Source of the DNA: an uncultured virus (IMG/VR IMGVR_UViG_3300021400_004415) | Taxonomy: Duplodnaviria; Heunggongvirae; Uroviricota; Caudoviricetes | Strand: one strand, 5' to 3' | Virus record (IMG/VR): IMGVR_UViG_3300021400_004415 | Length of the DNA: 20,000 nucleotides | Notes under the pieces: model-generated | Seen by the model: only the letters and a program-made list of their open reading frames with translations | Database searches by the model: none | What the model was told of the DNA's origin: nothing | Part shown: positions 2,496-20,000 of the stretch, one piece after another | Numbering within the stretch: the stretch's first letter is position 1 | How the letters are laid out: every line of letters begins with the position of its first letter | Made by a program: the position numbers and the translations under genes

Positions 2496-4681
2496 TATGC
2501 TTCTGAGGTTTGTATTAGTAAATCAAACAGTTGTGTTTTTCTCTTTGCGGAGTCTATCTGGGATGCGGCGCATCTGACGGCCTTGGCCTGTCCGATAAGG
2601 AGGAAGTATTTCTTTGCACGGGTGATGGCCGTGTAAAGGAGGTTCCTCTTCAGGAGTATGAACTGGCTTATATGAAGCGGCATGATGACGACCGGGTACT
2701 CTGAGCCCTGGCTCTTGTGCACGGTCGTGGCGTAAGCCAGGTCCAGTTCATTGAGATCCTGTGCGTTGTAGTTGATTTTCCCGATGTCTTCGCCGTAGTC
2801 CACGGAGAGGACGGGTGGGTTGTCTTCGTCGTAGTCTTCGCTTTCAGGATCCTGGGGGAGGGGGAGCGCCACTTTCCCGATATCCCCGTTGAAAACTCCT
2901 TTGTCGTAGTTGTTTTTCATCTGCATCACGCGGTCACCGAGACGGTATTCTTTTGAAGGCAGTCGTGCAAGCACCTTTCCCTCGGGGTTGATGGCCGCCT
3001 GCAGGGCTTTATTAAGCTGTATGGTTCCGACGGGGTCCCAGTCTCGCTTCATCGGAGCAAGTACCTGGAATTCCACCCCGCGTTTATTGCAATAGACTGC
3101 CTTTGATACCACCTCTTCCGCCACGTCTTTCGCTTCATCGAGCGAGATGAAGGCGAACTCCTTGGAGTCCTTGGGTGAACGGAGGAGGGGTGTGCGTCCG
3201 TGGTTGACGTCATGGGCGGCCATGACTATCTGTGACCCTTCCGCCTGTCGGTAGACTTTCGTGAGCGCCGCGACGCTGTTGCCGAAGAAGTGTATCATGT
3301 CGTTGAGCACGTTTCCTGCGCCGACGCTTGGCAGCTGGTCCGGATCACCAACGAAGACAAGTTTCATTCTGTCCGGAACGGCTTTCAAGAGGCTTCGCAT
3401 CAGCATGGTGTCAATCATCGAGCATTCGTCCACTATGAGGACGTCACCTGTCAGGGGATTGTCTTCGTTGCGCTGGAACCCTTCGCGGTTGAACTCCAAC
3501 AGGCGGTGTATTGTCTTGCAGGTTCGTCCGGATACCTCTGTGACCCTCTTGGCGGCGCGTCCTGTGGGAGCTGCCAGGAGGAGTTTATAGCCAATGCTTT
3601 CGAAGGTACGGATGATGGCGTTGGTGGTCGCCGTCTTACCCGTACCGGGACCTCCGGTGAGGATGGTGACGCTTTGGCGTAAAGCCTTCCGGATAGCGTC
3701 CGTCTGTTCGTCGGAGTAATGCATACCTGTGAGTCTGTACAGGGCTTCCGGATCCGGTTCGGCTCCGGGTATCTTGAGTCCTTTCTTGTTGACGGCGAGA
3801 AGGCGTTTGGCTATGGTCTGCTCTGCGTAGTAGTACTTTGGCAGGGCGGCGCGTCCGTCATCGGTGACTATGGCTTCCGTGACGGTCGGGTCGTTAAGGG
3901 AACGGGTGACAGTTTCTTCATCCTGGAGGTTGATATACTTATCGGACATCACCAGGTGGACGAGTTTGTCTGCCTCGAGATAGGTGTGTCCTTCGTTGGC
4001 GGCGTCCTCTAGGGCGGCGTTGATGGCGGAGCCGATGCGGAAGGGACTGTCCTCCGGCAGTCCGAGTTTCAGTGCCACTTCGTCCGCTTTCTTGAATCCC
4101 ACGCCCTTGATATCGTCGGCAAGGCGGTAGGGGTTTTCCTCCAGCCTTGCGACGGAGTCGTCGCCCCAGGTCTTGTAGATTTTCGTTGCGAGGCCGTTCG
4201 TCAGGTCGTAGCGCTTGAGCCAGACCATAATGGAACGGATGGCCCTTTGGCTACGGACGGCCTCGATGATGTTGCGGACACGTTTTTTGCCGATGTTCGG
4301 CACTTCCATTAACCTTTCCGGCTCGTTATCCAGCACGTCGAGGGTTTCTTCGCCGAAGGTGTCGACGATGGAACGGGCGAGGACGGGCCCGATTTTTTTG
4401 ATGAGGCCGCTGGCGAGGTACTTGTATATGCCTTCTATGTCGCTGGGGCGTCTTTCAATCATCGAGGAGACTTCGAAGCAGGGGCCATACTTATTCTTGA
4501 TAAGGGTTCCTGTGAAGTCATACTTCTTTCCCGTGCAGACGCCCGGCATGATTCCTTTCATGGAGAGCGGCGCCACGGTGCCGTCGGATTTGACGGCATC
4601 GGTCCGGATGACGCACCAGTTGTTGACCGGGTTTTTGTATGTGATTCCGAGGATGGTGGCTGTTATAGTTCTTGTCTGCAT
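2495..4681 (-). CDS. recD2: ATP-dependent RecD-like DNA helicase (RecD2, SF1B)
   Basis: Has an N-terminal OB-like region, HhH motifs (KKIGPVLA, PNIGKKR, KGVGFKKAD), Walker A GGPGTGKT, APTGRAAKR, DECSM, VGDPDQLPSVGAG, YATTVHKSQGSEY and LYTAITRAK. Likely start is MQTRT at 4681, a TAATG overlap with the upstream ORF; 728 aa. Confidence 0.95.
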   Translation of the reverse strand: MQTRTITATILGITYKNPVNNWCVIRTDAVKSDGTVAPLSMKGIMPGVCTGKKYDFTGTLIKNKYGPCFEVSSMIERRPSDIEGIYKYLASGLIKKIGPVLARSIVDTFGEETLDVLDNEPERLMEVPNIGKKRVRNIIEAVRSQRAIRSIMVWLKRYDLTNGLATKIYKTWGDDSVARLEENPYRLADDIKGVGFKKADEVALKLGLPEDSPFRIGSAINAALEDAANEGHTYLEADKLVHLVMSDKYINLQDEETVTRSLNDPTVTEAIVTDDGRAALPKYYYAEQTIAKRLLAVNKKGLKIPGAEPDPEALYRLTGMHYSDEQTDAIRKALRQSVTILTGGPGTGKTATTNAIIRTFESIGYKLLLAAPTGRAAKRVTEVSGRTCKTIHRLLEFNREGFQRNEDNPLTGDVLIVDECSMIDTMLMRSLLKAVPDRMKLVFVGDPDQLPSVGAGNVLNDMIHFFGNSVAALTKVYRQAEGSQIVMAAHDVNHGRTPLLRSPKDSKEFAFISLDEAKDVAEEVVSKAVYCNKRGVEFQVLAPMKRDWDPVGTIQLNKALQAAINPEGKVLARLPSKEYRLGDRVMQMKNNYDKGVFNGDIGKVALPLPQDPESEDYDEDNPPVLSVDYGEDIGKINYNAQDLNELDLAYATTVHKSQGSEYPVVIMPLHISQFILLKRNLLYTAITRAKKYFLLIGQAKAVRCAASQIDSAKRKTQLFDLLIQTSEA

Positions 4682-4944
4682 TAGCTGATGTTGCTGAATA
4701 TTCTCTGTCGGTAGATTTTTGCGAGTTCCTTTATCTTGTTGTAGACGTCGTCTTGCATCTTGCCGGATTTCTCGTGTGCGAGGAACCATGCTATCGCGTC
4801 AACGAAGAAGTATATTGGTTCATACTCGTCGTTATTGAAGGCGTCCACCATGACTTTTCCGAGAAGGTAAGGTCCTTTCTTTGATTCGAAGGTCAGGTCT
4901 ACGTTTCCGTTTTTATCCTCTACGAGTTTAAGGTATTCTTTCAT
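4681..4944 (-). CDS. Hypothetical protein (87 aa)
   Basis: ATG start, protein-like composition, and its stop overlaps the recD2 start. Confidence 0.75.
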   Translation of the reverse strand: MKEYLKLVEDKNGNVDLTFESKKGPYLLGKVMVDAFNNDEYEPIYFFVDAIAWFLAHEKSGKMQDDVYNKIKELAKIYRQRIFSNIS

Positions 4945-5049
4945 AATGGATAAGGTTGTGTATCATTTCGCCTATTCGGGGTTTTGCGAAATGCCCCGGC
5001 AGGGGAGGGTGAAACTTCTTTTTGGGGCTGAGAATTGAGAAAATGCCTA

Positions 5050-5677: not shown

Positions 5678-6480
5678 ATCATGAAGCGTTTTTTGAATTC
5701 TTCGTAGAATTTTTCGTAGTCTGCGGCTCCGTTGCTCTTCGGAGCGTAGTCGAAGACGCTCTGGCGGTGCTGCGGGCATTCCGCCAGGCGCACGTTCTCG
5801 CGGATACGGGTCTGGAAGACCGTTTCTCCGTAGTGTGAGCGGAGGGCCTCGTCGACGGCCCCGTGCAGGTTCTTGCTGCCGTTGTAGTGTGTGATGAGGA
5901 TGCCGTCGATGCCTATCGAGGGGTCGAAGTAGTCCGCGAGTTCCGCGCACTTCGCCTGGAGTTTCTGGAGGCCCATGAGGGGCATGTATTCAGCCGTGGT
6001 AGGCACCACGAGGCCGTTCGATGCGACGAGGGCGTTCTGTGTCAGGAGTCCAAGGGACGGCGGGCAGTCGAGCAGCACTGCGTCGTAGGTCTTTTCCAGT
6101 TGGAGGTTCCGGAAGATGCGGCTCAGAAGCATCTCCCGGCTGGTCTTGGCCGTGAGTATGCTTTCCAGTTCCCCGGCATCGGGGCTTGACGGGATGAGGT
6201 CGAGGTTCGTTTCGGGGTGCTCGAACTCCTCTCCCCTGATGATTACGTCCGGCAGGGCGCCGAGCGGCGAGGACATGAGGGACAGGATGCCTCCCCTGTC
6301 GGCGGCGGGTTTCACGAAGCATTCCGTGAGCGAGCACTGTGCATCGAGGTCTACAAGGAGGGTCCGGTAGCCTTCCCTGGCAAGGAGGGTGCCGATGGCG
6401 GCCGTGGTGGTGGTCTTGCCTACGCCGCCCTTGTTGTTTGCGAAGGCTATGATTGCCGTTGCTGTTTTATTCTTTCTCAT
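5674..6480 (-). CDS. parA: ParA/Soj family partition ATPase
   Basis: Deviant Walker A NKGGVGKTTT, LVDLDAQ, LDCPPSLG and IRENVRLAE. Probable start MRKNK at 6480 (268 aa). No N-terminal HTH. Confidence 0.95.
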   Translation of the reverse strand: MRKNKTATAIIAFANNKGGVGKTTTTAAIGTLLAREGYRTLLVDLDAQCSLTECFVKPAADRGGILSLMSSPLGALPDVIIRGEEFEHPETNLDLIPSSPDAGELESILTAKTSREMLLSRIFRNLQLEKTYDAVLLDCPPSLGLLTQNALVASNGLVVPTTAEYMPLMGLQKLQAKCAELADYFDPSIGIDGILITHYNGSKNLHGAVDEALRSHYGETVFQTRIRENVRLAECPQHRQSVFDYAPKSNGAADYEKFYEEFKKRFMI

Positions 6481-6499: not shown

Positions 6500-7501
6500 T
6501 TAAAAACTGTTTTCCAGCAGGTCTTCCGGAGCGTGCTGGAGCCTTTCTTCATCCTCAATGGAGGCGGTATAAATCATCGAGGTGTTGACGGAAGAGTGTC
6601 TGAGCGCTCTCTTTACATCCATTATGGTCCCGCCATTCTTGATGATCTGCGTCGCTGTGGTGTGTCTGAGTGAGTGTGCCGAATATTCGTGGGAGTCGAG
6701 CCCTATGGCGCGTAATCCCTTCTTTATTATGAGCTGGATAAGTCTCGGCGTCATCGGTCCGCCTCTGTGCTCCTTTCCCTCTCCTTCACCCGTTTTCGAC
6801 GGGTGTCGGCCCTTTCCTTCAGTGGCAAAGAGGGGTTCTTCCTGGAGGGTGTTACCTCTTGTGTCAAGATAGGTCTTGATAGGTATCCACGCAGAGTTGG
6901 TAAGAACGACATACACGGAGTGGTCCGGGGCGTCCATTCCTTTTCCCCATACATATAGGATTCTTCTTCCGTTGCGGAAACTGATATCCGATATCTTCGC
7001 TCTTGACACCTCAATCGTCCTGAGACCCGTCCTGAGCATGAGGTTTACCATTGCCTTGTCCCTGGGGTTTTTGTACTGTTCAATCAGCTCTTTTCCCTGG
7101 AGGGTGGTGAGGTGCATTTTGATGAAATGCTCTTTCGTTCCTCCCTGGTTGACTCTCGGGGCCTTTACGCCGGCGGCTATGTTCGGATAGAGTTTCCTGG
7201 ATTCAGCCCACTGATAGAAGCGGTGAAGGGCTATGATATAAGCCCTTGTTGTGAGTACCCTGTGTCCGCTTGTGAGTAGGTATTGTTTGTAGATGATGAT
7301 GTCTTCGGCCTGTACTTCCGCAAGTTCTCTTCCGGTCTTGTCGAGCCACTTGAAGTATTGTCTTATGGCGTCGCCGTAAGTTTTTCTTGAGGTGTTTTTG
7401 ACATCAAGGGATGCAAGGAACGCCTTTATAACGGTGTCCTTGTCAAGTGTTACTTTTGCTACAGTGTTGTTTGACGATATTTTAGTTATATCTGTTGTCA
7501 T
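6500..7501 (-). CDS. Tyrosine recombinase (Xer/integrase family), probable multimer resolvase
   Basis: SAM-like N-domain plus catalytic motifs TGLR, WGKG, HSLRH, RHSS and TSMIY. Probable start MTTDI at 7501, just downstream of a promoter. Confidence 0.92.
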   Translation of the reverse strand: MTTDITKISSNNTVAKVTLDKDTVIKAFLASLDVKNTSRKTYGDAIRQYFKWLDKTGRELAEVQAEDIIIYKQYLLTSGHRVLTTRAYIIALHRFYQWAESRKLYPNIAAGVKAPRVNQGGTKEHFIKMHLTTLQGKELIEQYKNPRDKAMVNLMLRTGLRTIEVSRAKISDISFRNGRRILYVWGKGMDAPDHSVYVVLTNSAWIPIKTYLDTRGNTLQEEPLFATEGKGRHPSKTGEGEGKEHRGGPMTPRLIQLIIKKGLRAIGLDSHEYSAHSLRHTTATQIIKNGGTIMDVKRALRHSSVNTSMIYTASIEDEERLQHAPEDLLENSF

Positions 7502-7520
7502 AACAAAAATAATTCTACAA

Positions 7521-7551
7521 CAAAGATAACAGTTTTTGTTATAAACACAAA
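7521..7551 (-). promoter_or_regulatory. Bacteroidetes sigma-A promoter for the recombinase-parA operon
   Basis: Minus strand TTTG (7551-7548), 19-nt spacer, TATCTTTG (7528-7521). Confidence 0.75.
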
Positions 7552-7884
7552 ACTTTTTATTTGTTGTGTGTGAATTTCTCGAATTCCGCTTTCGCGTCAA
7601 GGAACACGTTGTCGTCTTCTGATAGCGCCACTATGTCTGCGGCGGTGTACTTCCCAGTGGCTTTCTTTAGTGTTGTGGTGTAGAATACGGTTCCGACAGG
7701 GTATTTTGCCCTGGCGTTCTGGACACACGTACCGGAGCGTTTGTCTGTGACGAGGGCGTTATCCCTGATTGGGGTGCGGCCGAGCACCTGACCGGGCATC
7801 ACGGTCATCATCTTCTTGTCATGGAAGGAAGATATGTGCAGGAAGTGCAGTTTTGTTTTCATTACTTCAAAAAGTTTTGTGTTT
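7543..7884. repeat. Perfect 16-bp inverted repeat pair plus outer 10-bp inverted repeat
   Basis: AAACACAAAACTTTTT (7543-7558) / AAAAAGTTTTGTGTTT (7869-7884). Outer pair ACAAAGATAA (7520-7529) / TTATCTTTGT (7897-7906). Confidence 0.9.
7557..7862 (-). CDS. Hypothetical protein (101 aa)
   Basis: ATG start with protein-like sequence (MPGQ...YPVGTVFY). It fills the space between the inverted repeats. Confidence 0.65.
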   Translation of the reverse strand: MKTKLHFLHISSFHDKKMMTVMPGQVLGRTPIRDNALVTDKRSGTCVQNARAKYPVGTVFYTTTLKKATGKYTAADIVALSEDDNVFLDAKAEFEKFTHNK

Positions 7885-7905
7885 GAAAAAAATGTATTAT
7901 CTTTG
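7876..7905 (+). promoter_or_regulatory. Bacteroidetes sigma-A promoter for the ncRNA/tRNA transcript
   Basis: TTTG (7876-7879), 18-nt spacer, TATCTTTG (7898-7905). Confidence 0.75.
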
Positions 7906-8043: not shown

Positions 8044-8125
8044 AGTCTGATGGCGGAACGGGTATACGCGACGGTCTCAAAAGCCGTTTCCGGAAGGATT
8101 GAGGGTTCGATCCCCTCTCAGACTA
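8044..8125 (+). tRNA. tRNA-Leu (anticodon CAA)
   Basis: Acceptor stem AGTCTGA/TCAGACT, anticodon arm ACGGT-CTCAAAA-GCCGT, long variable arm, T arm GAGGG-TTCGATC-CCCTC, discriminator A. CCA is not encoded. Confidence 0.92.
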
Positions 8126-8133
8126 CAAGACAT

Positions 8134-8205
<72 letters not shown>

Positions 8206-8295
8206 CAAAGCAATCATTCTCGCTTTTTTGCAGTGCAAGTGCAGCTGCGATGATGATTTCTTTTTTCATTGTGTTTCATCAAGGTATTAACGAAA

Positions 8296-8395: not shown

Positions 8396-8569
8396 TTATT
8401 TCGAGAATTCAACGGAGATTTTGCGGAACTCCTTGAGTTCCTTCATCAGTTCGAGGGCGACCTTGCGGGCGCGTGCACCTGCGGCCTTGTTGCCTTTTTC
8501 GAGCTGTGCGGCGGATTCCTGCTGGAAGGCTGCCATGTCGGCATTGATTTTTGCTACGAGTTCTTTCAT
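8396..8569 (-). CDS. Histone H1-like (Hc1 family) nucleoid-associated protein, 57 aa
   Basis: Hand translation: MKELVAKINADMAAFQQESAAQLEKGNKAAGARARKVALELMKELKEFRKISVEFSK. The GNKAAG.RARK..LEL.K.LKEFRK.S signature matches Bacteroidetes histone H1-like proteins. It is below the ORF-track size cut-off. Confidence 0.9.
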   Translation of the reverse strand: MKELVAKINADMAAFQQESAAQLEKGNKAAGARARKVALELMKELKEFRKISVEFSK

Positions 8570-8611: not shown

Positions 8612-10657
8612 TCATTCCGGCATGTCTTCCGGTATGATTTCATCAAGGAATCGGCTGGGGTCCGAAGGCTCTGTCTTTCCGTATTTCCAGCGGTTTTCGC
8701 AGGAGGTGATGATAAGTTCGTTACGGGCTCGTGTCATGGATACATAGAACAGTCTTCGTTCCTCTTCGAGGTCGAAGGGCGTAGAGTCGTTCCTGAGGGC
8801 CGGGTAAAGCCCCTCTTCGGCTCCGGCGATGAAGACTGTGTCGTACTCCAGTCCCTTGGCTGAGTGTGAGGTCATCAGTGAGACGGAGTCCCCGTCATTC
8901 TCTTGACGGTCAACGGCCGAAAGGAGGGCGATGTTCTCAAGATAGTCCCCAAGGGAGGTTTTTGGTACGCCGCCCTCTCCGGAGGAGTAATCCTGTTGCT
9001 GCTCGTCAAGGAAGTAGGAAATACCGTTCATCAGTTCATCGATGTTATTGCTTCTTTTTTGCCCGTCAGTGTCTTCGTCGTCTTTGTATAGGGCATAGAT
9101 ACCCGTCTTGTTGATGATGTCCGTAGCGGTCTCGAAAGCGTTGTTCCCGGCGTTTGCCGTGTCAAGCTGCTCGATCAGCGAGACAAAGGTTTTCAATGCT
9201 GCAATGGGCTTCGGCTTAAGTCCGCATTCGTCGTGGTCGAGGTCTTTGGCTTGTTCGAAGAGCGAGAGGCCCGTGAATGAGGTCCGGGCAAGGAGAGTGT
9301 TCAGCGTCTCGTCGCTGATTCCCCTGGCGGGTTTGTTGCAGATTCTCTTGAAGGACTCGTCGTCGTTGTGGTTGATGACGAGTTTCATGTAGGCCAGCAC
9401 GTCCTTTATTTCCATTCTTTCGAAGAAGGACATGCCAGAGTATATGACGTAGGGGATATGTTTTTTCAGCAAGGCGTCCTCCAGTTCCCTCGCCTGGGCG
9501 TTGGTCCTGTAGAGGACGGCCATGGTGTTCCAGCCCTGCCCTTTATCGTGGGCCGCATTCATCCGGTCTGCAATGAAACGGGCTTCCAGACGGTCGTTCT
9601 TGACGAACTGGATTTCCACTTCGTTTCCCCCGGAACGGGACGCGTAGCAGTGCTTGTCAAGACGGCCCTCGTTGTTTTCGATGAGGGCGTTGGCGGCATC
9701 TACGATGAACGGAGTGGAACGGTAGTTCATCTCGAGGCGGAACTGCCGGCAGCCGGGATGGTCCTTCTGGAAGTTAAGGATATTCTCAATCTTTGCCCCA
9801 CGGAAGGCATAGATGGACTGCGAGTCATCTCCGACGACGCATACGTTGCCGTGCACTGCGGTGAGCATGGTGAGTATCTTGTACTGGATGACGTTGGTGT
9901 CCTGATATTCATCCACAAGGACGTAACGGAAACGTGAGGATACTTGTCTTGCGATATCCGGGTAGTTCTTGAAAAGGAAGAAGGTATAGACGAGGATATC
10001 ATCGAAGTCCATTGCGTTGGAACGTTTGCAGCGTTTCATGTAGGCTTCGTAGATCTCCGGCATCCTGTCTCGTCCGAGATGGATATCATAACTTACAAGT
10101 TCACTGTCCGAACGATAGTCGGAAGGGACGATGAATGCGTTTTTGAGAAGGGATATCCTTGAAGAGACGTCTTTGATTTTATAGACCTTCTCAAGCATTC
10201 TCTTTCGGGCTTTCTTCTGTTCGTCCGACAGGCTTTTGACATAAGCTTTGTCTTTCCACTGTGGCCCGTAGAGCGTTTCGCCGATGATGTCCTTGAGGCA
10301 ATTGTCGGCATCTTCCTTATCGAAGATGGTGAAGTTCGACGGGAAGGTGATATAATCGTGGTATTCACGTAGGAACCGGATAAAGACGGAGTGGAACGTG
10401 CCCATTACGAGCTTTTTAGCTTGGGGGCCTGCGAGTTTTTCTATTCGTTCACGCATCTCACCCGCAGCCTTCTTCGTGAAGGTAAGGGCGAGTATCTCCC
10501 AGGGTGCGACCCCGTCGAGGAGGTGCATGGCTATGCGTGAGGTCAGAACACGTGTCTTTCCGGAGCCTGCTCCTGCGTTGATGAGGATGGGACCGTCTTT
10601 TGCCAGTACAGCGGCACGCTGTTCATCATTAAGGTTTTCAAGTAGCTTCTCGTACAT
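8612..10657 (-). CDS. pcrA: UvrD/PcrA family SF1A DNA helicase
   Basis: Motifs AGAGSGKT, LTFTKKAA, LVDEYQD, VGDDSQSIYAFRGA, NYRST, YRTNAQ, HSAKGLEY and EERRLFYVSMTRA. Confidence 0.95.
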   Translation of the reverse strand: MYEKLLENLNDEQRAAVLAKDGPILINAGAGSGKTRVLTSRIAMHLLDGVAPWEILALTFTKKAAGEMRERIEKLAGPQAKKLVMGTFHSVFIRFLREYHDYITFPSNFTIFDKEDADNCLKDIIGETLYGPQWKDKAYVKSLSDEQKKARKRMLEKVYKIKDVSSRISLLKNAFIVPSDYRSDSELVSYDIHLGRDRMPEIYEAYMKRCKRSNAMDFDDILVYTFFLFKNYPDIARQVSSRFRYVLVDEYQDTNVIQYKILTMLTAVHGNVCVVGDDSQSIYAFRGAKIENILNFQKDHPGCRQFRLEMNYRSTPFIVDAANALIENNEGRLDKHCYASRSGGNEVEIQFVKNDRLEARFIADRMNAAHDKGQGWNTMAVLYRTNAQARELEDALLKKHIPYVIYSGMSFFERMEIKDVLAYMKLVINHNDDESFKRICNKPARGISDETLNTLLARTSFTGLSLFEQAKDLDHDECGLKPKPIAALKTFVSLIEQLDTANAGNNAFETATDIINKTGIYALYKDDEDTDGQKRSNNIDELMNGISYFLDEQQQDYSSGEGGVPKTSLGDYLENIALLSAVDRQENDGDSVSLMTSHSAKGLEYDTVFIAGAEEGLYPALRNDSTPFDLEEERRLFYVSMTRARNELIITSCENRWKYGKTEPSDPSRFLDEIIPEDMPE

Positions 10658-10662
10658 ATCAG

Positions 10663-10840
10663 AATTTTTGTTTCAGCCGTGGCAGTTCTTAATTTTGCAC
10701 TGCCCTACCGCATTAGATGGGCGCGACGCGACCATAGCGCGGCAGGACAGTGCGGGACAGGAACTGCGCTTCCGGGACGTCAAGGGAGAAAAGCGTCAGG
10801 CGCACCCTTGACGCTCCCAGGAAAGGCTGTTTCAAAATTT
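10663..10840 (+). promoter_or_regulatory. Candidate single-stranded-DNA promoter/primer site (Frpo/ssi-like fold-back)
   Basis: Branched fold-back that pairs the TTTG box (10667-10670) and leaves the TAATTTTG box (10690-10697) mispaired. The spacer is 19 nt. Confidence 0.6.
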
Positions 10841-10864
10841 TGTCACTTTTCTGAAAATTTGACA

Positions 10865-11698
10865 TTATTTTGATGTTTTTCTGTATGGAACTGGTTCCAT
10901 GCCGTGCAGTTTGTAGAAGTACACTGTATAGAGTGCCGCAAGGAAGGCTGGCATGTAGCCCCTTGTCTCCGAAGGAAGGTATTGGTAGATTGTCCAGTAG
11001 TCGTCGGTCTCTGCTTTCCTTACGGCTTTCATCACGTTACCTGAGCCGCAGTTGTATGCGCTGATGGCGAGCGGCCACGAGCCCCAGCGACGGTAGGCGT
11101 CCCGGAGGTATTTCGCTGCCGCCCTGGTGGACGGTTCTTTCTCGAAGCGTTCGTCAATGAGTTCGTTGCATTCAAGCCCGTAACGCCTTGCTGTGTCCGG
11201 CATCAGTTGCCACAGGCCCGCTGCGCCAGCCGGGGAGACGGCGTTGGGGTTGAGAGCGGACTCGACTATAGCCAGGGCGGTCAGGTCCTCCGGCACGCCG
11301 TAGGCGCGGAAGATGCTGCGCATCTGCCCTTCCTCGGCGAGGTACTTGCCGAGGATTCGGAGGAGCTGGCGGCGGTGGTTGACTATATAATCCGCTATCT
11401 GCGCTTCAAGGATGTCGTTGTATGGAACGAGGAACTGTTGCGGAAGGAGGTTGATACGTGCCCCCAGTACGCTTTCGGACGGGAGGTCTGTCGGGGCGTA
11501 CGGAACGACGGGTTCCGGAGCCTCCGCCGGGGCAGGCTCCGTCGGGGCTTCCTCTTCGGCGAACTTCCACGTATCGAGGCTTGCGATATTCCCCTTCCAT
11601 TCCGTGATGGGTTCTTCGTCCAGGGAATGAATTATCTGTGCCCCCATAGGGAGGCACAGTGTGAGGAAAAGCGTGCAGACAAGGAGATTTTTTATCAT
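10865..11698 (-). CDS. Secreted lytic transglycosylase (SLT domain, MltD-like, no LysM)
   Basis: Signal peptide plus motifs LAIVES, AVSPAGAAGLWQLMP, AYNCG and ETRGY. Confidence 0.92.
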   Translation of the reverse strand: MIKNLLVCTLFLTLCLPMGAQIIHSLDEEPITEWKGNIASLDTWKFAEEEAPTEPAPAEAPEPVVPYAPTDLPSESVLGARINLLPQQFLVPYNDILEAQIADYIVNHRRQLLRILGKYLAEEGQMRSIFRAYGVPEDLTALAIVESALNPNAVSPAGAAGLWQLMPDTARRYGLECNELIDERFEKEPSTRAAAKYLRDAYRRWGSWPLAISAYNCGSGNVMKAVRKAETDDYWTIYQYLPSETRGYMPAFLAALYTVYFYKLHGMEPVPYRKTSK

Positions 11699-12460
11699 TT
11701 ACGGTTGCTTTGGTTGTGAGTAATCTTGAGTTTCTTTATATTCGAATTGTACTATTTCTCGTCCGGGAAATTTTTTCTCAAGATACTTTTTTGCTTCTTC
11801 TTTGTTTTGGATTTCTGGAGGAAAGTCGCATGTTGTTCTTGTATTGTCATTGATATAGTAGAAGTATTTCCATTCAGGCCCGTTTCCGAAGTCATGTATG
11901 TAATAGGCTATACTGCGGTTGAGCATGATTATGTGTTCTTCCATCTCATCTATTGAGAGGCTTTTAAATGACATCATGGGTTGTTCTTCTTCTGAGCCGA
12001 AATGTTCTATGATGTTGTATTTTATTTCTTCAAACATTCCTTGAGCATCATCATAGCTGCTTTCTTCAAACCATTTTAGTTCTCGTTTCCAGTGATGATG
12101 TTGGTCTTCTTCCCAGCCTTCTTTTTTTAGTTTTTCTTTCAGTTCTAGGTAGTGTTCGTAATCTTTATAGCTTATCTTATTGAGAAGCCATTCTGTATTT
12201 GTTGAAGCACAGTATATTTTTATTCTTTTGCCTGGTTGTTCTTTATAGTTTACTTTGAGGAACAGGAAGTCTCCGTCTAAACAATTCGGCGGAGTGTATG
12301 GTGATAAATCTGAAATATCTGTCGGGAAGTATGCAATATTATCCGGATTATTGAAATAGTCCGGATCTTCAAAGCTCAAGCGTCCCGGGAAGCGGTTTTT
12401 AATCCATTCGAGAAAATTATACTCCGCTTTTATTTTTTTTCTTTGTAGAAGGGTAAACAT
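11699..12460 (-). CDS. AT-rich hypothetical protein (253 aa)
   Basis: Probable start MFTLL at 12460, 8 nt after the topB stop. The stop abuts the SLT start. Confidence 0.75.
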   Translation of the reverse strand: MFTLLQRKKIKAEYNFLEWIKNRFPGRLSFEDPDYFNNPDNIAYFPTDISDLSPYTPPNCLDGDFLFLKVNYKEQPGKRIKIYCASTNTEWLLNKISYKDYEHYLELKEKLKKEGWEEDQHHHWKRELKWFEESSYDDAQGMFEEIKYNIIEHFGSEEEQPMMSFKSLSIDEMEEHIIMLNRSIAYYIHDFGNGPEWKYFYYINDNTRTTCDFPPEIQNKEEAKKYLEKKFPGREIVQFEYKETQDYSQPKQP

Positions 12461-12468
12461 ATAGTGTA

Positions 12469-14658
12469 TTATTTTTTGTTGAACTGTAGTTTGGCGTTGG
12501 CGTATCTTCGCCCGTCTTTTTCGCTCAGTTCGAGCTTCAGCCAGGCGTCGAAGGGTTTTCCCGTCTTGGTGGAGATGAAGCCCTTGACGAGCCCCGTATA
12601 GCCTTTCTCGAAGAGATGCTTCACGGTCGTGGTTCCGAGTCTTTTCTTGAACACTGTCCGGTTGAAGTACAGCCCGCATTCGCGGTTGGAACAGATAGCC
12701 TTGTCATCCCATACCCGCATCACGGAGTGGCAGATGGGACAGACGATGGCGTCGGCTGCCGCCGCCCGGACGATCTCGTTACCGATGGTGAGGTTGCTCA
12801 GCTGATTGGTTATCTTCTCCGTATAGGTGCGGATATTCGTGTCGAAGCTTCGGGCTTCCATTTTAGCGTCGGCAATGGCCGTAAGGGCTATCTCCCAGCG
12901 CCCGGTCATCTCCACGTCGGCGATAGTCATGTCCTTGACAAGGTTATACACTTCAAGGCCCGTCTCAGTGGGGATGATTTTCTTGCCTTCTTTCTTGAGG
13001 AACTTACGCTGGTTGATAAGGATGGCAAGTATCCCGGCACGTGTTGCCACGGTGCCGATACCGCATTCCTTGAGGGCGTCCTTCACTTCCTCGTCCTCGA
13101 CCTCCTTGCCCGCGTACTTCATTGCCTTGATAAGGCTGTCGTAGGTATAGAGAGGCTTCGGCTTGGTCTTGCCCTGTACCGTCTCTGCTTTCTTTACGGA
13201 CAGTATATCACCCTGCTGGAGCGGAGGTACTTCCTGAACGGGTTCCTTGTCAGGGTCGTTCTCTTCCGTTTTTTCCGCTGTGTCCTTCGCACCTTCACCA
13301 AGCACGGCTTTCCAGCCGGGCTTCTCTACTTTAGTGGAGGAGGCGGTGAATTCTTCCCCGCCGCAGGTGAAGCGATAGGAGGACACCAGCGTCTCGCAGT
13401 TGGGAGAGAACGCCTGGAGCATCCTTTCCGCCACGAGCATGTAGATGTTAGCCTCCTTCTGGGGCAGGCCGTCAGGCCCTTTCCCTTCAAGAAGGAGTGC
13501 GTGGTGGTCGGTCACCTTGCCGTCGTTGACGCTCCGTTTGTTGAGTTCGGCGTAGGGCGTTGCCTTGAGCCCTGCGGCGTATTGCTTGAGCGGCCCGTCA
13601 GGGAGACTGGAGGCAAGCTGTGCGAGCCTCCTGGGTATGGTCTTCATCATGTCCCAGGGGATGAAGGTCGAACCGGTACGGGGATAGGTAACCAGTTTCT
13701 TCTCGTAGAGACTCTGTAGGAGTGACAGTGCCTCGTCCGGCGAGTAGTCGTAACGTCTGGAAGCCTCCTGTTGCAAGGACGTCAGGTCGTGCAGCAGGGG
13801 CGCTTTCAGCGTGACCGGCTCCGTCTTTGCTTCCGTCACTTTCACGAGGGTGTTCTCGCACCTCTTGACGACGGAGTTGGATTCCTCGAAGGAGGTGAAG
13901 CGTTTGACGGACTGTATCTGGAAGGCTTTGCCTTTTGATTCGGTCTTTATCCTTACCACCCAGAATGGTGTGGAGACGAACTGTTTGTTCTCCATGTAAC
14001 GCTTGCACACCAGCGCTAGCGTAGGTGTCTGCACCCTTCCGAGCGAGAAGACGCGGCGGTCGGCGGGATTGGCTTTCCTTATGGCGAGGGTTAGAGCCTC
14101 GGTGGCGTTCAGCCCGACAAGCCAGTCCGCTTCGTTGCGGGCCTTCCCCGCAAGGAAGAGCGGTTCATACTCGCTCGCGGGACGGAGCGAAGCGAGGCCC
14201 GTGCGGATGGCTTCATCGGTGTTGGACGACACCCAGAGGCGGAGGACGGGCTTGCGGCACCTTTCGTTGCGCTCGCAGACGTATTCGTAGATATACTTCT
14301 GTATAAGCTCGCCCTCGCGTCCGGCATCACCGCAGTTGATGATGCGGTTGGAGTTGGCGAAGAGCATCTCTATGATGGAGAGTTGCTTGGCTTTGCCCGG
14401 ATCGGGCTTCCCGTCTTTCTGCGCCACCCGCAGCTTGAAGGCCGGAGGAAGGACAGGCAGGCTCTCGGCCTGCCAGTGCCTGCTCCGGTACTCTTCCCCT
14501 TCGTCCAGCTCCACGAGGTGACCGAAGGCCCAGGTGACGGCTGCGCGTTCGCCGTTAAGGCTCCCGCCGTCGATGTAACCGTCGTGTCGTTCCTTTGCCC
14601 CTATGATACGGGCGAGGTCGGCTCCGAAGGACGGTTTCTCTGCTATGAGCACTATCAT
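12469..14658 (-). CDS. topB: DNA topoisomerase III (type IA)
   Basis: TOPRIM AEKPS / DAGREGE, GRVQTPTL, catalytic TYPRT, DHHA, GIGTVATRA, and a C-terminal Zn-ribbon (CPIC...CSNREC) with a GFIS..GKPFDA repeat. Confidence 0.95.
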   Translation of the reverse strand: MIVLIAEKPSFGADLARIIGAKERHDGYIDGGSLNGERAAVTWAFGHLVELDEGEEYRSRHWQAESLPVLPPAFKLRVAQKDGKPDPGKAKQLSIIEMLFANSNRIINCGDAGREGELIQKYIYEYVCERNERCRKPVLRLWVSSNTDEAIRTGLASLRPASEYEPLFLAGKARNEADWLVGLNATEALTLAIRKANPADRRVFSLGRVQTPTLALVCKRYMENKQFVSTPFWVVRIKTESKGKAFQIQSVKRFTSFEESNSVVKRCENTLVKVTEAKTEPVTLKAPLLHDLTSLQQEASRRYDYSPDEALSLLQSLYEKKLVTYPRTGSTFIPWDMMKTIPRRLAQLASSLPDGPLKQYAAGLKATPYAELNKRSVNDGKVTDHHALLLEGKGPDGLPQKEANIYMLVAERMLQAFSPNCETLVSSYRFTCGGEEFTASSTKVEKPGWKAVLGEGAKDTAEKTEENDPDKEPVQEVPPLQQGDILSVKKAETVQGKTKPKPLYTYDSLIKAMKYAGKEVEDEEVKDALKECGIGTVATRAGILAILINQRKFLKKEGKKIIPTETGLEVYNLVKDMTIADVEMTGRWEIALTAIADAKMEARSFDTNIRTYTEKITNQLSNLTIGNEIVRAAAADAIVCPICHSVMRVWDDKAICSNRECGLYFNRTVFKKRLGTTTVKHLFEKGYTGLVKGFISTKTGKPFDAWLKLELSEKDGRRYANAKLQFNKK

Positions 14659-18175: not shown

Positions 18176-20000
18176 TTATTCGTGGGTCACCCTGTCACGG
18201 AGCTCCGCTTTTTTGGCGGAGTTCCAGCGTTCGGTGGTACCGACGAGGTAACCGGTGATGCGCTGCAGGAGGTCGATGTTCTTGCTCCCGCACTTGGGGC
18301 AGACGGTGATGCCTTTCTGCCCCGTCTCGTAGCCGCAGTCAAGGCACCTGGCCCTGTTATGGTTGACGCTGCCGTAGCCCATGTTGTATTTGTCCATGAG
18401 GTCGACGATCTGCATGATGGCCTCAGGGTTATGGGTGGCGTCGCCGTTCATCTCGATATAGAAGATATGTCCGCCTCTGGTGAGGTCATGATAAGGGGCC
18501 TCGATACGGGCCTTCTCTTCGGGCGTGCAGTGGTAGAAGACCGGAACGTGGTTGGAGTTGGTGTAGTACTCCTTATCCGTCACGCCGGGTATCTGTCCGT
18601 ACCGCTTGCGGTCCACCTTAGTGAATTTCCCCGACAGGCCTTCGGCAGGAGTGGCAAGGACGGAGTAGTTGTGCTTGTATTTCTCGCAGTAACGGTTGAC
18701 GTTGTCGCGCAGGAACGTTACTATCCTCAATCCCAGTTCCTGTGCCTGCGGGCTTTCGGCGTGATGCTTGCCCGTGAGGGCCACAAGGCACTCGGCAAGG
18801 CCGATGAAGCCTATACCCAGTGTACCTTGGTTGATTACTGAGGCAACGGTGTCTGTCGGCTTGAGGTTTTCCGAACCGAGCCACATGCCGCTCATCAGCA
18901 TGGGGAACTGCTTGGCAAGGGCGCTGGACTGGAACTCGAAGCGCTGGTGAAGCTGGAGGGCGGTCACGTCCTCAAGTTTCTGGAGCCTGTCAAAGAAGGC
19001 TTCTATTACCTCCGGACGGTTACTCCCGAACTCCGCGCCCATTTCCTTCACGGTCTGGATAGCCAGGCCGGGGAGGTTAAGCGTGGAGAAGGACAGGTTA
19101 CCTCGTCCGATGGATGTCTTCGGACCGAAACGATTTTCATAGACACGGGTACGGCAACCCATGGTTGCCACCTCGTGCTCGAAACGGCGGGGATCGTCGG
19201 CTTCCCAGGCGTCGTCCTGGTTGAAGGTTGCGTCGAGGTTAAGGAAATTAGGATAGAACCGTTTCGCGGTGACCTTGCAGGCGAAGCAGTAAAGGTCGTA
19301 GTTGGGGTCGCCGGGAAGGTAGGAGACTCCGCGTTTCTTCTTCCATATCTGTATGGGGAAGATAGCGGTCTCTCCGTTGCCGATTCCCTCGTAGGTTGTG
19401 TTAAGTATCTCGCGTATGATACAGCGTCCCTCCGGGGAGGTGTCGGTACCGTAGTTGATGGATGAGAATACGACCTGGTTGCCGCCACGGCTATGGATGG
19501 TGTTCATCTTATGGACGAACGCCTCCATGGTCTGATGGACGCGCCTTACGGTGCGGTTGACGGCGATTTGGCTGATTCGGGCGGCAAGTACGTTGTAATA
19601 GTTGTAATCATCGGTGGCCATGATTTCCTCGTCTACGTCTTCCTTGATATAATCGTCTATTGACGTATTCTTTATCATATCAAAGAATCTGTCGTATGAA
19701 ACCGTGACGATGCTTTCCTCATCCGAAGGATCTTCCATTTCTATGTCTGAATTTATACTTGTGGTAGGCATTATGCCCCGCAGGTCAGCCCGCAGCCTGT
19801 CCACTTCTTCCTCGTATGTTTTCCGTACATACGGGGCAAGGTAGAAGTCAAAGGCCGGGATGGCCTGTCCGCCGTGCATCTCGTTCTGTACGGTCTCCAT
19901 TCCGATACAGGCAAGATCGGCGGCCGTCTCAAGGTGCTTTGCCGGACGGTGTGCGGCGTGCCCTATGACGGCTCCTTCACGAAGAAGCTTGTCCGTGGGG
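18176..20000 (-). CDS. nrdD: Anaerobic (class III) ribonucleoside-triphosphate reductase, 5' end outside window
   Basis: Motifs QNEMHGGQ, SRGGNQVVFSSINYG, TMGCRT, GRGNLSF, ATPAEG, YYTNS, CLDC...CPKC and the glycyl-radical loop RITGYL. The frame stays open from 19900 to 20000 (PTDKLLREG...RPAKHLETAA). Confidence 0.97.
   Translation of the reverse strand, partial: PTDKLLREGAVIGHAAHRPAKHLETAADLACIGMETVQNEMHGGQAIPAFDFYLAPYVRKTYEEEVDRLRADLRGIMPTTSINSDIEMEDPSDEESIVTVSYDRFFDMIKNTSIDDYIKEDVDEEIMATDDYNYYNVLAARISQIAVNRTVRRVHQTMEAFVHKMNTIHSRGGNQVVFSSINYGTDTSPEGRCIIREILNTTYEGIGNGETAIFPIQIWKKKRGVSYLPGDPNYDLYCFACKVTAKRFYPNFLNLDATFNQDDAWEADDPRRFEHEVATMGCRTRVYENRFGPKTSIGRGNLSFSTLNLPGLAIQTVKEMGAEFGSNRPEVIEAFFDRLQKLEDVTALQLHQRFEFQSSALAKQFPMLMSGMWLGSENLKPTDTVASVINQGTLGIGFIGLAECLVALTGKHHAESPQAQELGLRIVTFLRDNVNRYCEKYKHNYSVLATPAEGLSGKFTKVDRKRYGQIPGVTDKEYYTNSNHVPVFYHCTPEEKARIEAPYHDLTRGGHIFYIEMNGDATHNPEAIMQIVDLMDKYNMGYGSVNHNRARCLDCGYETGQKGITVCPKCGSKNIDLLQRITGYLVGTTERWNSAKKAELRDRVTHE

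Follow-up and report, generated by a model that had tools for sequence, protein, structure and literature searches.

What is a sizeable, strongly folded non-coding gap doing in a stretch of DNA whose genes are otherwise tightly packed? The window analyzed here, by which we mean the whole stretch of 20,000 nucleotides, carries all of its 19 protein genes on the minus strand, and the 207-nt gap at 10658-10864 is the sole sizeable one within this long gene run. In the direction of the genes, the order is NrdD, a MobC-type coupling protein, topoisomerase III, an unknown ORF, an SLT-domain lytic transglycosylase (SLT), the gap, uvrD, and an Hc1-like ORF, beyond which lie two + strand tRNAs, a Xer-like recombinase, ParA, RecD2, and an MksE-like gene. 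In its gene content, the window is typical of a large conjugative element of a gut Bacteroidota. The genes to which we refer most often are as follows.

10865-11698, minus strand: SLT-domain lytic transglycosylase, upstream of the gap (Pfam SLT, E 5.5e-29)
8612-10657, minus strand: uvrD, an accessory UvrD/PcrA-type helicase (Pfam UvrD-helicase, E 3e-81; UvrD_C, E 3e-73)
8396-8569, minus strand: 57-aa histone H1-like (HctA-like, Hc1-like) ORF, a weak match below the cut-off (NCBIfam NF051889, E 0.0018)
minus strand: MobC-type coupling protein (NCBIfam Bacteroid_MobC, E 1e-193)

The UvrD of the window is not the host's own copy: no UvrD in 30 related genomes exceeds 51% identity to it, and the genome G001, which has the window-type uvrD on a short contig, carries a second UvrD as well. 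Relatives of the SLT subfamily in a protein collection (P0004-P0010) show 64-97% identity. The anaerobic ribonucleotide reductase NrdD (18176-19900; Pfam NRDD, E 7e-158) adjoins the coupling protein on the same strand. At positions 3-2495, an MksE-like protein (PF21980, E 2e-19) follows ORFs of 435 and 137 aa with no or weak SMC-like matches, and this region may be a Wadjet/Mks-type condensin module on a mobile element. The sole + strand genes of the window are tRNA-Leu(CAA) and tRNA-Met(CAT), at 8044-8206.

Folded with DNA parameters, the + strand of the gap forms a three-way junction of -47.9 kcal/mol, compared to -28.7 ± 3.3 kcal/mol for shuffled sequences (z -5.76; none of 200 shuffles equaled it). 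The stems and motifs that a sequence-only reading of this locus had named were all found in place, and the fold lies well beyond chance. It is made up of the following parts.

10674-10829, + strand: core three-way junction (P1, long hairpin, and side hairpin), 156 nt, the conserved unit
10674-10678 (CAGCC) with 10825-10829 (GGCTG), + strand: P1, closing the core
10682-10767, + strand: long imperfect hairpin, with P2 (10682-10690 paired with 10759-10767), the box region, inner helices, and an apical loop at 10725-10727
10770-10823, + strand: side hairpin, which includes CGTCAAGGG (10778-10786) paired with CCCTTGACG (10805-10813) and has a conserved 18-nt loop region, AGAAAAGCGTCAGGCGCA
10666-10670 (TTTTG) with 10833-10837 (CAAAA), + strand: outer stem, specific to the window sequence
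10842-10863, + strand: a small hairpin, rich in A and T, that separates the core from the SLT stop codon; the homologous locus L218 (see below) lacks it

In a GC-corrected sliding scan of the 20 kb, the segment 10651-10860 was the best on the minus strand and the second best on the + strand. As DNA, the minus strand reaches -49.5 kcal/mol (z -7.6); with RNA parameters, the values are -88.3 (z -7.9) for the minus strand and -88.2 for the + strand. Because the element is nearly palindromic, both strands fold equally well, and the fold alone does not tell which strand is functional. A search of Rfam gave nothing credible up to E 10 in 10400-11100, and the two tRNAs alone reached the gathering score. 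The 156-nt intergenic structure is real and conserved, and it is matched by no known family. An intrinsic terminator was ruled out, as the element contains no terminator-like site on either strand in the window or in L218.

Homologues of the locus were obtained from a metagenome scan with A2, an alignment of the N-terminal parts specific to the SLT subfamily, which yielded the four loci L218, L219, L220, and L221. L221 is 99.97% identical to the window across 3,461 aligned bases, and L220 is an upstream piece that matches the window exactly over the shared part. L218 and L219 come from two separate metagenomes and have gap sequences identical to each other. The order in L218 is topoisomerase III, an unrelated ORF, SLT, a 169-nt gap, and UvrD; compared to the window, the SLT shows 55% protein identity, the uvrD region about 76% DNA identity, and the gap about 70-75% identity. 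The other neighbors are unlike those of the window, with HNH/RRXRR upstream and Cas12a downstream. Since the order of SLT, gap, and uvrD is kept while these neighbors differ, the three travel as a module.

As to those neighbors, the HNH/RRXRR nuclease occupies 1-981 of L218, upstream of topoisomerase III, and the Cas12a (8627-10375; Cpf1 REC1/REC2 domains, E 1e-42) lies two genes downstream of uvrD. Topoisomerase III and SLT appear to flank a cargo slot: the interval holds ORFs that have no similarity to each other (11699-12679, 326 aa, in the window; 3197-4957, 586 aa, in L218), that match no Pfam family, and for which the Atlas gave no lead.

We next turn to the pairing itself. A covariance model built on the window alone with the + strand structure (R1) matched L218 at 6000-6152 on the minus, that is, the antisense strand (64 bits, E 1.4e-13). 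Among the 37 R1 rows, two distinct sequences, the window and L218, were retained; the identical copies in L221 and L219 were left out, as were 33 weaker rows (31 at E of at least 0.34, and two at E 2.7e-6 in which the window and L221 match themselves on the reverse strand). Between these two lineages, in an alignment fitted to the structure, 14 of the 59 pairs were changed on both sides, a number that fell to 1-4 when the partners were slid by 1-3 columns. Standard pairs were formed by 110 of the 116 cells in this two-sequence alignment, none of 500 shuffles was as good, and the shuffles had a mean of 6.9 two-sided changes.

P1 reads CAGCC/GGCTG in the window and TCGGT/ACCGA in L218, with two of its five pairs changed on both sides. 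The long hairpin (helix 2) has 26 pairs, of which four changed on both sides and whose cells are paired to 94%, and there are two compensatory pairs in its outer stem. In the side hairpin (helix 4), 8 of 17 pairs changed on both sides around a loop that is nearly identical in L218. With DNA parameters, L218 itself folds to -42.7 kcal/mol in the + orientation (z -4.57) and to -40.0 kcal/mol on the opposite strand. The compensatory changes relative to L218 argue that the fold is under selection. The sequence-only reading had called for a covariation analysis across homologues; between these two sequences covariation is present, and L218 keeps both the same fold and a TAnnTTTG box.

Closer relatives are found on contigs from animal-gut runs that are 89-96% identical to the window and whose flanking genes vary mainly at third codon positions. 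For the X5 contig, 37 of 42 differences are listed, and a single one of these falls in the 156-nt core, at 10814 in a bulge, compared to about 5 for an even spread; these counts for close variants refer to the listed differences and leave out 116 others, among them most of those in X14 (89% identical). Among 20 listed runs, none that carries the locus is an RNA run.

The two promoter-like boxes of this structure are the following.

10690-10697, + strand: TAATTTTG, a match to the Bacteroidota -7 box TAnnTTTG, in the 5' arm between P2 and P3
10667-10670, + strand: TTTG, a candidate -33 box with a spacer of 19 nt to the -7 box, not conserved

The -7 box had been proposed to face non-Watson-Crick partners, and this holds on the + strand of both relatives. 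In the window, its partners are A10759, a C10758 bulge opposite AA, A10757, and GGG 10754-10756 as T.G wobbles. L218 has the box TAAATTTG at the aligned columns and in the same structural place, and the T.G wobbles at alignment columns 24/84 and 25/83 are common to both sequences. In each of them, TT(T) of the box faces GG(G) and AA(A) faces a short bulge, and no conserved block of the 5' arm is longer than the one that contains the box. In the modeled folds, this would be a region of the "pre-melted" type, the box facing mispaired or unpaired partners in both sequences.

TAnnTTTG occurs four times on the + strand and three times on the minus strand of the window. Three sites in the 20-kb window combine it with a TTTG 17-21 nt before it: one precedes the tRNA pair by about 140 nt, one lies at the start of the recombinase (integrase) ORF, and the third is the fold-back box. 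The 10.4 kb of L218 have no TAnnTTTG on the sense strand and four on the antisense strand, among which the fold-back box alone has a TTTG 15-23 nt upstream. The box near the tRNA pair is TATCTTTG (7898-7905), with TTTG at 18 nt. The region 7381-7650, at the 5' end of the Xer-like recombinase ORF, is AT-rich (GC about 0.31-0.36) and folds as strongly as the core element on both strands; it holds TAnnTTTG boxes at 7451-7458 (+) and at 7504-7511 and 7521-7528 (-), the last with TTTG at 19 nt, and may be a divergent promoter or a recombination region.

The upstream half of the proposed promoter fared less well. A TTTG 19 nt upstream of the -7 box is indeed present in the window, but a T>C change at 10668 in the contigs of all four relative runs (89-96% identity) abolishes it, the X5 and X9 contigs additionally having T>A at 10666, and the nearest TTTG in L218 stands at a spacer of 17 nt, unpaired and outside any stem. 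Likewise, the outer stem TTTTG/CAAAA exists in the window but is broken by 10668 T>C and has no counterpart in L218, where the SLT stop codon abuts P1.

The position of the box within the fold limits what the folded molecule can be. Five compensatory pairs lie in P1-P3, and their 5' arms are upstream of any start from the box; the folded molecule thus contains the box and cannot be an RNA initiated at it. If the structure were nevertheless a non-coding RNA of the + strand, antisense to the operon, its start would have to lie upstream of 10674, inside the 5' end of uvrD. Such an RNA, which we consider unlikely, could possibly act as an antisense or protein-binding RNA or even as a promoter mimic that binds RNA polymerase. 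It would agree with the covariation of the fold, with the conserved sequence of the loops, and with the behavior of L218, which with RNA parameters folds 18 kcal/mol better on the + strand (-89.0 versus -70.6 kcal/mol on the sense strand) and has 10 G.U pairs there versus 2. However, there is no TAnnTTTG upstream of 10674 on the + strand and no conserved candidate in L218, neither homologue has a terminator-like site after the element (in L218, the SLT stop directly abuts P1), Rfam gave no match up to E 10, and the window shows no strand preference (-88.3 versus -88.2).

The structure could also belong to the sense mRNA between SLT and uvrD, as a processing or stabilizing element or as a leader controlling uvrD translation, in which case the + strand box would be a coincidence or a part of a conserved internal loop. 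Given that all genes share the minus strand and leave little space between them, transcription probably runs through the gap as well. The distance of 16 nt between P1 and the uvrD start codon is the same in L218, and in the window the sense strand folds slightly better (RNA -88.3, z -7.9; DNA -49.5) and has two internal G.U pairs. In L218, however, these two pairs are lost, and the sense strand is 18 kcal/mol weaker with RNA parameters because six G.T pairs of the + strand become A.C mismatches on it. The structure has no Rfam family, and an mRNA element would leave the conserved consensus box on the opposite strand unexplained. On balance, we regard an mRNA element as rather improbable.

We also assessed what base composition says about the strand. 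On the common structure, the + strand has 11 G.T cells versus 3 A.C cells. Three of the 11 G.T cells are common to both sequences, and the lineage-specific events number five G.T versus three A.C, so that this + strand wobble bias appears weak once shared ancestry is counted. G.U-type pairs are as typical of RNA as of DNA, the difference between the strands of L218 with RNA parameters (-89.0 versus -70.6) would suit a + strand RNA as well as single-stranded DNA, and the DNA-parameter energies favor neither strand (-47.9/-49.5 in the window; -42.7/-40.0 in L218). At four-fold sites, the C>G bias of the coding strand (-0.23) is the same as in 60 chromosomal ORFs of the genus (-0.215) and thus reflects codon usage. 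The coding strand of the window also prefers A over T at these sites (+0.13), and the reverse holds for the 60 chromosomal ORFs (-0.16); the composition of plasmid and host confounds any use of this A/T bias to infer which strand is transferred.

The conjugative context would also suit a site on single-stranded DNA that is not read by RNA polymerase, either an oriT or nick-site hairpin or a priming signal of the primase/primosome type. A three-way junction of 59 pairs is much larger than the usual oriT inverted repeat. The loop of the side hairpin contains, on the minus strand, GTGCGCC, which is conserved in L218 and corresponds to seven letters of the MOBQ oriT consensus NWACCNNTAAGTGCGCCCTYNN, as quoted in a passage of PMC3832669. 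The likeness was noticed after the fact and is confined to these 7 of 12 core letters, the rest of the consensus being absent. Moreover, no relaxase family was matched by 18 ORFs of the window searched against Pfam or by 15 searched against NCBIfam, no oriT was found within the window, and the functional strand would have to be the minus strand, contrary to the wobble bias. We therefore think a site of this kind quite unlikely.

In duplex DNA, the -7 box points away from uvrD and is antisense to the genes, and no consensus sense-strand box for uvrD was found in the gap of the window or of L218. This arrangement, with a box that is backward in the duplex and redirected on the folded + strand, is exactly what a fold-back promoter on single-stranded DNA predicts. 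Its geometry is self-consistent, the + strand being the template of the neighboring genes and uvrD having no consensus promoter of its own in the gap. The best single reading, which we favor tentatively, is an RNA-polymerase entry site on single-stranded DNA similar to Frpo, ssi, or sso; the conserved fold with its box fits such a promoter without proving it to be one. The conjugative context, with a MobC-type coupling protein, topoisomerase III, and SLT nearby, would count in its favor. Of the fold-back promoter as originally interpreted, the fold, which is under selection, the -7 box, and the orientation are supported; the -33 box is doubtful, the outer stem is not conserved, and no further copy was found.

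As an entry site for RNA polymerase, the element would be a strand-specific signal that acts when the + strand is single-stranded, as in conjugative entry, with the + strand as the transferred one, or in replication of the rolling-circle type. The + strand DNA would fold into the three-way junction, with P1 stacked on P2 to give a quasi-continuous duplex. This duplex would end in the weakly paired region, where the non-template -7 box TAnnTTTG, of the type used by the housekeeping sigma factor of Bacteroidota, is presented. At this box, the host's RNA polymerase would bind, begin transcription some 7 nt beyond it, and use the 3' arm as template; it would then round the apical loop and continue down the + strand into uvrD. 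The outcome would be sense mRNA for the UvrD/PcrA helicase and the Hc1-like gene, preceded by a leader of about 90 nt, or a primer from which the complementary strand is synthesized, or both.

The closest known counterparts would be Frpo and ssi. A mispaired or unpaired melting region, equivalent to the -10, was reportedly described in Frpo by Masai and Arai in 1997. In the account given in parts of PMC11541004, Frpo and ssi are fold-back promoters that mimic a duplex on the T-strand and drive leading-region genes before complementary-strand synthesis, and new candidates were called there by structure plus the -35/-10 consensus; BLAST similarity to known elements also served as a criterion. 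The element of the window resembles those of IncF and IncI1 in several ways: a non-coding gap of a conjugative element folds back on itself over a long, imperfect stem; a host promoter element lies in the 5' arm, with a melting region that faces non-Watson-Crick partners; the genes downstream have the folded strand as their template; and the downstream gene has a part in establishing incoming single-stranded DNA (UvrD here; SSB/PsiB there, according to PMC11541004 and PMC10085688).

The differences from Frpo and ssi are nevertheless considerable. The element has a Bacteroidota -7 box instead of -35/-10 hexamers, its upstream -33 box is not conserved, and it forms a three-way junction with a conserved side hairpin instead of a single stem-loop. 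By blastn, it has no sequence similarity to any plasmid in PLSDB. Finally, it is present in a single copy in the sequences searched, whereas F-like plasmids have several; PMC11541004 gives 13,089 Frpo/ssi copies in 6,006 elements, several per leading region.

Single-strand origins offer a second comparison. These sso are strand- and orientation-specific, non-coding, and highly folded, with a length of about 150-200 nt and with the conserved motifs RSB and CS-6; at origins of the ssoA type, RNA polymerase recognizes the fold and makes a primer. The element shares with the sso of rolling-circle plasmids and with sso1 of ICEBs1 its non-coding nature, its high degree of folding, and its similar size, but Pfam and NCBIfam searches of the window revealed neither a rolling-circle Rep nor a relaxase gene. 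PcrA/UvrD helicases are functionally linked to such replication, as stated in parts of PMC10085688.

The element is rare. The search for additional fold-back copies that the sequence-only reading had suggested came back empty: the models R1 and R2 found none in the window or in L218-L221 (46 kb), and among 151 genomes of the genus, G001 was the sole match of R2, with a single copy. At the DNA level, G001 alone was matched among 401 genomes of the order, with none in the 400 others, and a dispersed repeat or miniature mobile element was ruled out on this basis. G001 was also the sole close match of the SLT protein in 401 genomes of the family and of A2 in 401 genomes of the order. A scan of genome contigs with the UvrD protein found relatives of at most 50% identity (best segment) and no matching element. 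In PLSDB (72,556 plasmids), window positions 10500-11000 gave no match by blastn with the 'distant' setting, and a protein search gave none either. Four scans of IMG/VR viral contigs were without a related match, and a 9+9 hairpin pattern matched viral contigs 78 times, all unrelated by blastn.

Thanks to promoters on single-stranded DNA, plasmids can express protective genes minutes after they enter a cell. To our knowledge, the characterized cases all come from enterobacterial plasmids, and a few other elements have yielded some proposed candidates. The primary sigma factor and the promoter of Bacteroidota differ from those of such hosts. No Bacteroidota single-stranded DNA promoter or single-strand origin was found in the literature that we searched, and the main text of the 2024 Nature survey (PMC11541004) has no mention of Bacteroid*. 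It is possible, albeit doubtful, that the locus described here is such a Bacteroidota promoter, in which a three-way DNA junction turns a backward promoter forward for uvrD, and only while the DNA is single-stranded.

If this is true, the incoming DNA would switch on a helicase that aids its own conversion to duplex and would switch it off once converted. Parts of PMC10085688 report that the recipient's UvrD is needed for the single- to double-strand conversion of incoming plasmids and propose a model in which UvrD clears single-stranded DNA and thereby lets hairpins of the Frpo kind form. The connection of our locus to a UvrD carried on a plasmid agrees with this need for recipient UvrD and leads to a testable model of self-limiting early expression. 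Given the different sigma factor and promoter of Bacteroidota, the principle of the single-stranded DNA promoter would then be general, and the element would provide a pattern by which leading regions could be sought in gut conjugative elements, the vehicles of resistance and defense genes.
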